From: a virus
Lineage: Duplodnaviria > Heunggongvirae > Uroviricota > Caudoviricetes
IMG/VR virus record: IMGVR_UViG_2698536549_000028
Location: 1 to 21,331 of that record
Strand: one strand, 5' to 3'
DNA length: 21,331 bases
Shown: piece after piece, positions 6,001 through 9,000 of the stretch
How the letters are laid out: the number at the start of each line of letters is the position of its first letter
How positions within the stretch are numbered: the first letter of the stretch is position 1
Made by a program: the position numbers

Positions 6001-9000
6001 TCGCTCTTTAACAAACTGAACCGCGTGACAGGTAAGCCGCAGTACTCCTGGCAAAACGAAATAGCACCCGATGGGATCGAGGTAAGCGCCGAGTCCGTAT
6101 GCGTACGGTAAGCGTAGAGGACAACACCGCGACAAACTGATAAGTCACGCAAGTTGAAACGCCCCGACGATGGGGCGCTTAGTTCCTTTTGGGGTGGGGT
6201 GAAGATCAGTCCATTGAGTCAATCCGAAGTTCAGCATCTACCACTACACCACCACCAAAGAGAACTGCTAATCATCTGGCAGGTTGTAACGGTGCAGGAA
6301 TTTTGCCACTGACTTCTATATTTCGGGGAAATTTATATTCAGCGGAGCATTTATGACACTTGAGAATTTTATAAGCGGCATTAGAAGTATGGTATTGAAG
6401 TATAGACTTCATACCCGACTCATAGCATGTAGTACAAAGATAATGAGGCTTGAACTCAGGATCGTCAGTAGGCTTCAGTACATAGACCACCGTATTGGTA
6501 ATTGGGTGGTACATTTCATAGTTCATTTTCTCACTATCCCAATCCTGTTTCTTTTCCAGAAGGGATTCGAGTTCAACAATGCGCTGTTTAGCTTCGTTCA
6601 AAAGCTCCGTTAGTGCGAATTGTCCAGTACGCGCATCAATTAGTTTATCAAGTAGATCGATAGTTTTACTTTTAACATTGTAATCCACCTGCAACGCATT
6701 AACTTCTTTTGCTAAATCAACAGCACCTTTCAAAGCACCACCAGCACTAGTGGCCGCCTCAGTTATACGCCGTACAAGTCCTTTTTCTTCAGACATCTTA
6801 ATTCTCTCTAAAACTATAGGGGTAAAGAGATATTAGCCGAATTCTCGCTGTAGGGGTACAAGGAGAACCACCTCGCCTGATGTGGTTAAAAGCAGGCACT
6901 CGATGATATCCATGTAATTGCTGTGTGTAGTCTTTGCCCGCCTCAAGTGACGGGTTTTTTTATGTCTGAAAGCGCACTCGCAACAGCGTGCTCCCCGATA
7001 TGAAAAAAGGAATACAACCAATGAAACCTGAACACCTCTATCGACTGACGGGGCGCGATGTTCTCCGTTATCGCCGTAAAAACTTCGATTTGATGACCGG
7101 TCTGGCCGTTGCCACTGCGCTCGGTCTGATCATCACTTTCATTCTCCTTGTAGCGAGGACCACAGTATGAGTTTAGAAACCAGTCTCGAACTTAATAATC
7201 AACTTCTGGCACAACATAATGCGCTGCTTGAACGTCTTATCCGCACAATGGCATCAGGTATTGTTATGCATCCTGACACGATTTCACGAGTGCAGGAATG
7301 TCGGGATACAGCAACTGAAGCTGAAAACATGTCAGCGGCAATGACACTGGATGATCTGGAGTTCAGCGACGTTATCGCACTGGCTGGTTTCTACCCGGTA
7401 GCCACCCCTATCACAGAAGACATGCTGCAACGTGCTGTTGCCTACCGTGATGCTGAAGGCGATAAACGAGTAGTTCAGATTGATGCTCTCGACAGCGCAT
7501 TACAGGGCGTCAAACGAGCCAGGGCGCTGCTTAAACCTGCTCTCCTGGACCTGTCCCGTAACATTCTTAAGTTCTGGGACGACCTGCCAACCATCGGCGA
7601 GCGACGTGCTTTTGCCGAGCAGCTACTTGATGCACCTGCAGATGGGCGTGATGAAGTTAAGCCGAAAAAGGCCAGTAACAAAGATGGAGAACGCACGGGG
7701 CCGTTTTACGTCAAAAATGTATCCGGCACAGCAGCCAGTGAACTCCACACCTTACGCAAGTTGAACGAGATGCTGAAAAAAGGCCATATCGAGATCAACC
7801 GTGTTGAGTACCTTCAGCTGCAGGAAGAATTTGCACGCAGAGACGCAGCAAATTCCAGCCAGAATAATAACGCCAAAGATGACCATACAATTGATTTCGC
7901 GGCACTACGCAAACAAGCTGAAGGGTTGATCCTCCAGTTAGCAAAAGGGGGTTACCGGGCAGAAGCTATTGCAATTCTGGAAAAACAGGGAGCCAGGAAA
8001 CTTGGTGAAGTAACAGATGAAAATCTCGCTGAAGTAATCACCCTGGCTGAAAAAGCACTGGAGGGTTAATCATGCCGGAAGCCTGGAAGGATATTTCAGG
8101 CTTTGAAGGAATTTACCAGATTTCAGACGCTGGCAACCTGAGAAGCCTCGACAGAACTGTATTAAACAAAGGTTCTGGCTGCACCTATCCCATTAAAGGT
8201 AAGTCACTAAAACCACGCTATGACGCAGACGGATATCTCATCACCGACTTATGGAAAGCGGGTAAAAAGGTAACCGTCAAAATACACCGTCTCGTTGCCG
8301 CTGCATTTATTCCCGGATCTGCCCCTGAAGTTGACCACATTAACGGTCGTCGAGATGACAACCGGGCGGTAAATCTTCGCTGGGCCTCTCTTTCACAAAA
8401 CAGGGCTAACTCTCACACCAGAAAAAATAAATCTGGAGTGGTTGGCGTTCGGTTCAGCGAAGGTAAGAAAAACCCGTGGCAGGCCTACGGACGATTAAAC
8501 GGCAAATTCAAATCTCTCGGTCATTTCCCCACCAAACAACTCGCAGCGGCTGCGCGGCGAAAACACATTCAGGAGGTCATGAATGCCTGATGTTCATGCA
8601 CGATTATCACCATCATCTGCACATCGTTGGCTAAGGTGTGCGGGTAGTCTGGCGCTGGAGGCCACACAACCGGATAAAGAAACAACTTTTGCAATCGAGG
8701 GCACTGCAGCGCACGCGCTTGCTGAAAAAGTTCTACGAAACAGGCAAAGCCACCCGGAACACTACGCCGGATGCAATGTTTCTATGTTTCTCGGCTCATA
8801 CCCCCTTCGCGAAAATCCTGATGATACATCTGGCCCACAGGTGGATGATGAAATGGTCGAAGCCGTTGGCCGGTATGTTGATACGGTCTGGACTCTTGCA
8901 CAGAATAATGAACTATTGGTTGAACAACGTGTTGATTTCTCACATATAACGGGTGTGGAAGAATCTTTCGGAACTGCCGACGGCATAATCATCGCTGGTA

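Follow-up and report, generated by a model that had tools for sequence, protein, structure and literature searches.

A variable cargo gene in the early region of a Shiga-toxin prophage very probably encodes a Rip1-family anti-phage defence protein

Rip1 (ring interacting pore 1) was described by Patel et al. (Nature 651:1060–1067, 2026, doi 10.1038/s41586-025-10075-1), and the account given here follows the passages on Rip1 in a review (PMC13434031), with which those in a meeting report (PMC12908700) and a citing paper (PMC13601566) accord. In the review's account, Rip1 is a single-protein prophage defence, non-toxic alone, that acts late in infection as both sensor and pore and brings about early lysis of the infected cell. 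Its defence role is backed by deletion and expression experiments, and infected cells carrying it round up, pointing to inner-membrane damage. Escape mutations fall in the portal for Pseudomonas phages and the small terminase for Escherichia coli phages, and cryo-electron microscopy (cryo-EM) revealed a 12-mer Rip1 ring around an 11-mer small-terminase ring. The C-terminal half of Rip1 touches the terminase ring, while an amphipathic helix lies at the N-terminus; the complex, which contains a pore, lets dye out of liposomes and perforates E. coli (PMC13434031). The same source describes homologues as common across proteobacteria, chiefly in prophages. Rip1 goes unmentioned in the companion Nature paper (PMC13017515). 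Here we analysed the gene at 6272–6796 (minus strand) of a 21,331-nucleotide (nt) stretch of Caudoviricetes DNA (IMG/VR record IMGVR_UViG_2698536549_000028, positions 1 to 21,331; hereafter the window), which is the early half of a Shiga-toxin (Stx2) prophage integrated beside yfhL and extends from the toxin genes as far as the attachment site. We consider it highly likely, judging from its sequence relationships, that the product of this gene is a prophage-borne, single-protein anti-phage defence of the Rip1 family.

The first-pass annotation of the window had presented this gene as an orphan of no recognised family and had proposed sensitive profile searches and structure prediction, which, once run, led to the Rip1 defence family. 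The open reading frame (ORF) was as annotated, encoding 174 aa on the minus strand from an ATG start, and its product is identical or near-identical to RefSeq WP_001288046.1, a 'hypothetical protein'. With phmmer, residues 3–159 aligned to residues 3–160 of Protein Data Bank (PDB) chain 9oox_L, the Rip1 of phage HK446 (E = 8.4e-45), in an entry titled 'Cryo-EM structure of the Escherichia phage HK446 Rip1 in complex with the Enterobacteria phage T6 small terminase'. The AlphaFold model of the protein matched chain 9oox_M of this entry in Foldseek (E = 3.5e-11), and tblastn gave 47.5–48% identity to HK446 gp37 over 91% of the query, gp37 (YP_007111990.1) being the coding sequence annotated at the match. 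The protein also matched PHROG 1244 (E = 2e-43), and a profile search of 1.84 billion cluster representatives returned 2,714 matches at E ≤ 1e-3 (1,096 at E ≤ 1e-10), giving a family of at least 2,714 representatives of clusters formed at 50% identity. The 150 best-scoring of these 2,714 were mostly 140–180 aa long and matched nearly end to end. With a PHROG, a family of this size and a relative of solved structure, the orphan label no longer holds.

In an alignment of 150 diverse members of the family, several residues were near-invariant: C121, C124, C147 and C150 were each kept in 149–150 of them, Y93 in all 150, H118 in 144 and W86 in 139. The CTTC…CHKC motif to which the first-pass annotation had drawn attention was confirmed at codon level in the C-terminal half, with CTTC formed by C121–C124 and CHKC by C147–C150 (Cys codons at 6434–6436, 6425–6427, 6356–6358 and 6347–6349). 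A CxxC…CxxC arrangement with a preceding His occurs in the window protein and HK446 Rip1 alike; this motif appears to define the Rip1 family functionally, and its four cysteines (Cys4) are predicted to bind zinc.

The AlphaFold model, made from an input of 12 homologues (mean predicted local distance difference test score, pLDDT, 76.7), has helices at residues 4–16, 21–34 and 39–92 followed by a beta-rich domain at 93–157, that is, the helical N-terminal part and compact C-terminal domain of the Rip1 fold. Codons 1–38 (6683–6796, minus strand) form a Gly/Ala/Ser-rich segment with the two short helices (pLDDT 51–72); it is a candidate for the membrane-active amphipathic part, a role suggested by analogy, and the hydrophobic moment of residues 1–24, in which Gly, Ala and Ser abound, is 0.40–0.49. 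Codons 39–92 (6521–6682, minus strand) form a single long helix (pLDDT 72–88) in which L48, L76, E77 and W86 are conserved family-wide. This had been described as a heptad-rich coiled-coil half; its helical nature is supported by the model, and the N-terminal half of Rip1 is described as an amphipathic, pore-forming helical region and not as a classical coiled coil. Codons 93–160 (6317–6520, minus strand) encode the beta-rich C-terminal domain with the Cys4 motif (nt 6347–6436; strands within 93–157, pLDDT 81–91). By comparison with characterised Rip1, this Cys4 domain would be the ring-contacting sensor, and the Gly/Ala/Ser-rich N-terminus together with the long helix would build the pore. 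No hydrophobic transmembrane stretch was found in the 174-aa protein, mean hydrophobicity being ≤0.2 in all 18-residue windows.

Close copies of the gene exist in other genomes. Its 99%-identity protein cluster holds 73 member sequences on 43 contigs, and nucleotide copies at least 99% identical occur in 27 of 5,426 complete E. coli genomes (among them IAI1, enterotoxigenic E. coli H10407 and O103:H2 12009), in each case annotated as 'hypothetical protein'. Orthologues in Citrobacter, Edwardsiella, Tatumella, Pantoea, Providencia and Arsenophonus retain 42 invariant columns at identities as low as 45%. Given this cluster, the 27 genomes and the conserved motifs of the orthologues, the sequence comparisons indicate that 6272–6796 is a real gene under selection and not a chance ORF.

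Several points weigh against the assignment to a Rip1-type defence. Identity is only ~48% to the characterised Rip1 of an E. coli phage and ~30% to Pseudomonas homologues; the N-terminal 30 residues are modelled at pLDDT 51–61 and are only moderately amphipathic; and a sigma-70 consensus scan of the minus strand upstream of the gene called no promoter. The mechanism is drawn from the review, the meeting report and the citing paper, in each case from what these sources say of Rip1, and from the PDB title. There is also no membership call at a curated threshold, because PADLOC (2023), Pfam and NCBIfam hold no model of the family: scans of the 174-aa protein against all three gave nothing above threshold, the Pfam scan at E ≤ 0.1 gave only a sub-threshold coiled-coil match, and the sole match in PADLOC-DB v2 (2023), a library older than the description of Rip1, was PDC-M27A at chance level (E = 0.035). 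A literature search with homologue accession numbers produced no match. Family membership, fold, motif conservation and the cassette behaviour described below are shown here, and the 174-aa protein is very probably, on this sequence evidence, a new member of an already known defence family described in 2026.

The mechanism in the 174-aa protein can be carried over, by analogy, from the characterised homologues. The protein would be made in the lysogen by the resident prophage and be harmless alone. An invading phage in its late phase would then produce ring-shaped packaging proteins (small terminase for E. coli phages, portal for Pseudomonas phages), the C-terminal Cys4 domain would bind the exterior of such a ring, and about 12 Rip1 copies would be templated into a second ring. 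The N-terminal amphipathic helices would then form a membrane pore and breach the inner membrane, so that the late proteins of the invader would trigger premature lysis or death of the cell before virions are complete, leaving the invading phage without progeny. A single protein would be both sensor and effector. The earlier suggestion of a single-gene exclusion function therefore stands in part: homology to HK446 Rip1 points to defence, while 'exclusion' is imprecise, since Rip1 is described as acting late and lysing the cell and not as blocking entry.

We compared the locus with closely related prophages by blastn, and the breakpoints found with NCTC9022, phage 606R2, O103:H2 12009 and the yak strain HY220605 delimit a variable cargo cassette at 6178–6907. 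Across prophages that are otherwise ~98% identical, this slot holds the rip1 allele of the window, a 189-aa allele 44.5% identical to it, or no rip1. In O103:H2 12009 the same rip1 is found with cI/cro different from the window, and in NCTC9022 the 189-aa allele is found with the same cI/cro. Phage vB_EcoM-606R2, which matches the window only from 6003, also carries the 189-aa allele, and HY220605, the closest Stx2b prophage, has the same cI/cro and no rip1, with 289 bp in place of window 6178–6907. The alternative cargo of HY220605 (retrieved stretch 20178–20465) contains an unannotated 64-aa plus-strand ORF with a CPAC…CPEC motif and no PHROG match. The claim that the gene occupies a variable moron slot beside the immunity region is thus borne out: opposite-strand cargo, polymorphic both in presence and in allele, is swapped within ~98%-identical flanks.

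The breakpoints of the 189-aa allele lie at 6189/6190 and 6758/6759, and because of the latter the leader and the first 12 codons are common to both alleles. On the left, the breakpoints of the cassette (6177/6178 and 6189/6190) abut a GC-rich hairpin, CGCCCC-GACGAT-GGGGCG, at 6160–6177, ~95 nt downstream of the rip1 stop and followed by TTT on the minus strand. This hairpin, which the terminator scan did not call, is by sequence and position a candidate terminator for rip1 and a candidate left boundary of the cassette. The alleles recombine at the shared leader and initial 12 codons at one end and by the downstream hairpin at the opposite end, and the 174-aa and 189-aa alleles diverge most in the C-terminal third.

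The position of the cassette relative to the immunity region also agrees with the first-pass annotation, which had placed the gene antisense between a PL-like promoter and the early-left genes. Operator-like palindromes (TTACAGGTTTRCTTGTAW) lie at 5133–5152 and 5179–5196, between cI and cro, and recur at 5964–5983 and 5899–5918. The OL/PL-like region (5899–5984, plus strand) comprises a promoter-like TTGACG-18-TATTTT at 5955–5984 that overlaps the palindrome at 5964–5983, and the second operator-like site at 5899–5918. Heteroimmune relatives are ~98% identical to the window from 6003 onward, and this boundary, together with the placement of operators and promoter, puts PL/OL to the left of rip1 and the early-left ORFs (from about 7019) to its right. 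Transcription from PL would presumably run antisense through rip1. The PL leader (5990–6189, plus strand; ~190 nt) contains no convincing ORFs and is ~98% conserved across differing immunity regions and slot cargo; no N-like gene follows PL, and a strong terminator (6936–6961) precedes the early genes. Folding of 5990–6195 gave no energy signal beyond shuffled controls (z = +0.45), nor did that of the RprA-like stretch 6845–6970 described below (z = −0.33), so that neither a put-like antiterminator RNA nor a strongly structured leader is supported.

Regulatory DNA appears to travel with rip1, since the ~100 nt upstream of its start are ~70% identical to the upstream region of HK446 rip1. This leader and presumed promoter region (6797–6907, minus strand) is missing together with rip1 from the closest Stx2b prophage. 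It contains a direct repeat, TACCCCTAYAG, at 6858–6848 and 6824–6814, and two conserved −10-like hexamers, TAATAT (6835–6830) and TATAGT (6818–6813), which are candidates only. On induction, de-repressed transcription from PL would meet rip1 head-on and could help silence it in the prophage's own lytic cycle; with rip1 silenced, the prophage's own terminase or portal rings would not trigger suicide. The operon that hosts the antisense gene is that of PL in the window prophage and HK446 and the late operon in D3112-like phages. Pantoea and Providencia homologues adjoin cI or N with their strand opposed to the early-left genes, and the Edwardsiella homologue, also beside cI or N, is convergent with cI and has its upstream neighbour on the same strand. 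From the antisense placement in Pantoea and Providencia and the D3112-like layout, we infer that head-on transcription may help switch rip1 off. Taken jointly, the ideas that rip1 alleles are interchangeable specificity cassettes and that antisense embedding in a lytic operon is the family's general self-immunity switch are speculative, and we regard the pair as rather doubtful.

Between the cassette and the first early-left ORF stands an intrinsic terminator on the plus strand (6936–6961; stem-loop GCCCGCC-UCAAGU-GACGGGU plus U7), which is the 3' end of an RprA-like element at 6852–6965 (plus strand; core 6908–6965). Aligned to Rfam RF00034, this element reached 44.4 bits (E about 1e-4 to 6e-4), short of the gathering score of 70, and its 3' half, AAUUGCUGUGUGUAGUCUUUGCCCG followed by the stem-loop and U7, differs hardly at all from the RprA consensus. 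From 6908 on, the element forms part of the prophage backbone and persists even where rip1 is missing. The element is present and unannotated in 177 complete E. coli genomes and occurs at ~86% identity on 25 large plasmids; HK446 rip1 likewise has a comparable opposite-strand terminator upstream. Judging from the sequence match, the element could act on the plus strand as terminator of PL transcripts, as a phage small RNA (sRNA) mimicking RprA, or as both, and PL-initiated transcripts could release the module 6908–6965 as an sRNA that binds Hfq and imitates the host RprA. A literature search for a prophage-borne RprA-like sRNA returned nothing relevant.

Other functions for the gene can be weighed against the same observations. 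Members of the family bind small-terminase or portal rings, and in D3112-like phages the gene sits between two terminase genes, both of which would suit a modulator of the prophage's own terminase, portal or lysis timing. Such an own-cycle role is very unlikely, because the gene is dispensable and polymorphic: the closest Stx2b prophage does without it, and others that are nearly identical carry the 44.5%-identical allele. In the contexts examined for D3112-like phages, HK446, E. coli, Pantoea and Providencia, the gene is also encoded opposite to the neighbouring lytic operon (the upstream neighbour in Edwardsiella being on the same strand), and the deletion and expression experiments summarised in the review (PMC13434031) show defence for Rip1. 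A relic of Rip1, decayed and non-functional, would account for the lack of a detected consensus promoter and for residues R56 and N101, where most members have Q and G, respectively. All motifs are intact, however, which makes decay one of the two least probable readings: the frame is open and full length, Cys4, H118, Y93, W86, L76, K130, S131, L133 and Q134 are retained, and the copies at least 99% identical are spread over 27 complete genomes of unrelated lineages (IAI1, H10407, O103:H2).

The location of the gene invites two further comparisons. The sieB genes of lambda and P22 occupy the same neighbourhood on phage maps, and a gene in the PL region adjoining N or cI could therefore be an early-acting superinfection exclusion factor of the SieB/SieA kind that blocks DNA entry or early development. 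Pfam has no match at threshold, SieB included, the protein has no transmembrane segments by 18-residue hydrophobicity windows, and its strong homology is to Rip1, a sensor of late morphogenetic proteins in the account of the review, all of which make early exclusion very unlikely. Membership of a SieB/Rex-type family was rejected, the sub-threshold coiled-coil match being all that Pfam offered and no 18-residue window being hydrophobic. A zinc-ribbon, nucleic-acid-binding regulator of the lysis–lysogeny switch or of PL transcription, an alternative raised in the first-pass annotation, would fit the CxxC…CxxC motif and the site beside the immunity region. The protein matches no DNA-binding family, though, its homologous structure is a ring surrounding a terminase oligomer (9oox), and the rip1 allele assorts independently of immunity type (12009 versus NCTC9022), so this alternative finds no support and ranks with the relic as least probable. 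A Rip1-family defence accordingly remains our preferred reading.

The remainder of the window is organised as an early prophage region whose closest complete counterpart, in the yak isolate HY220605, is 97.8% identical over 89% of the window and carries a toxin annotated in RefSeq as Stx2b. On the minus strand lie stxB (1–264), stxA (277–1236), a tRNA-Arg gene (1328–1404), the Q antiterminator (1574–1996), a Prim-Pol/DUF5906 primase (2626–4887) and a cro-like helix-turn-helix gene (4891–5178), followed on the plus strand by a LexA/S24-type cI (5172–5852). Beyond the cassette, all on the plus strand, come the phrog_11981 and phrog_6784 genes (about 7019–8069), an HNH/NUMOD4 endonuclease (8072–8590), a DUF2800 nuclease (8583–9884), an Enc34-type single-stranded DNA-binding protein (SSB; 9900–10448), Ant (10795–11595), a family-A DNA polymerase (12336–14399) and genes for AntA, DUF4406, Rha and SNF2 helicase (14508–19265). 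The integrase (19459–20862, minus strand) and the start of host yfhL (21071–21331, plus strand) complete the window.

Other cargo was noted in this region. The HNH/NUMOD4 homing-endonuclease gene is inserted between the phrog_6784 and DUF2800 nuclease genes; it is missing from that junction in O103:H2 12009 and NCTC9022 and present in the yak-strain prophage. At 10595–10780 (plus strand), isrK (54 bits) and the C4 antisense RNA (76 bits), both above their Rfam gathering scores, stand directly upstream of the Bro-N/Ant antirepressor gene, and together these form a P1/P7 immI-like, RNA-controlled antirepressor module in the early-left operon. A 208-aa ORF (11710–12336, minus strand), located opposite the early-left operon in the interval from ant to the DNA polymerase gene, had no match in Pfam, PHROGs, NCBIfam or PDB and only a chance-level one in PADLOC. 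Related prophages have a similar hypothetical ORF at this site or other cargo such as Nmad5, and by sequence and placement the ORF is a second moron-like gene without a recognised family. The start of the AntA-domain ORF (14508–15404, plus strand) overlaps an Rfam sRNA-Xcc1 match (14510–14594, plus strand; 53 bits, equal to the gathering score). The closest prophages have a TIR-domain protein where the window has this ORF, and the site is a further variable cargo position, possibly related to defence.

These results propose a name and a mechanism for a gene that RefSeq lists as a 'hypothetical protein' in 27 of 5,426 complete E. coli genomes, and they place a Rip1-type abortive-infection defence on Shiga-toxin prophages; they reveal no new kind of system. 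An Stx lysogen with rip1 may resist T-even-like or other lytic phages, and Rip1 on Stx prophages bears on phage therapy and biocontrol of Shiga-toxin-producing E. coli (STEC) as well as on competition among prophages in STEC genomes. The allele swaps offer natural material with which to map the determinants of phage-ring recognition.

Compared with HK446 Rip1, the window protein belongs to the same family, although more than half of its residues differ, the divergence being strongest in the last third, which suggests that trigger specificity may differ; identity falls to 29% over residues 136–160, and the C-terminal tails are unrelated. A search of PDB with the closest prophage's own small terminase (DUF1441 type), seeking likeness to the T6 trigger, gave no match. 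The HK446 gene lies downstream of N, whereas in the window the gene is flanked by PL and the first early gene, and unlike HK446 the window prophage has a Prim-Pol/DUF5906 primase, a family-A DNA polymerase, DUF2800 and an Enc34-type SSB, and no N gene. More distant homologues were matched by tblastn in Pseudomonas phages (D3112 orf25, DMS3-25 and JBD30 gp30; E about 1e-13, ~30% identity over ~80% of the length). Like the window gene, these D3112-like homologues have the Cys4 motif and sit within a lytic operon on its opposite strand, but that operon is the late and not the early-left one. Their position between the two terminase genes fits that given for Pseudomonas Rip1 in the review (PMC13434031), where escape mutations of the Pseudomonas system are assigned to the portal and not to the small terminase.

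The inter-terminase slot of Casadabanviruses, filled by the Rip1 homologue in D3112, DMS3 and JBD30, holds Tab in Pseudomonas phage JBD26 (Patel et al., Nat Commun 2024, PMC10884400), a constitutive minus-strand moron with its own promoter. Tab, like Rip1, acts late on virion morphogenesis proteins; it differs in acting through the tape-measure protein to stop tails from being assembled, and cell death comes from the invader's own lysis genes and not from a pore (PMC10884400). Tab further has a dedicated anti-Tab partner, whereas no partner gene is evident beside rip1 in the window. Tab was rejected as a relative of the window protein: it is 83 residues long and shows no similarity, and tblastn gave no match in JBD26. 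Use of conserved phage packaging proteins as the infection signal is shared with the STAND NTPases Avs1–4 and with TerI (PMC13601566); these are either large NTPases of several domains, with the effector in domains of its own, or unrelated proteins. Rip1, in contrast, combines sensing and killing in ~170 aa, and in the review's description the phage ring itself templates assembly of the effector (PMC13434031).

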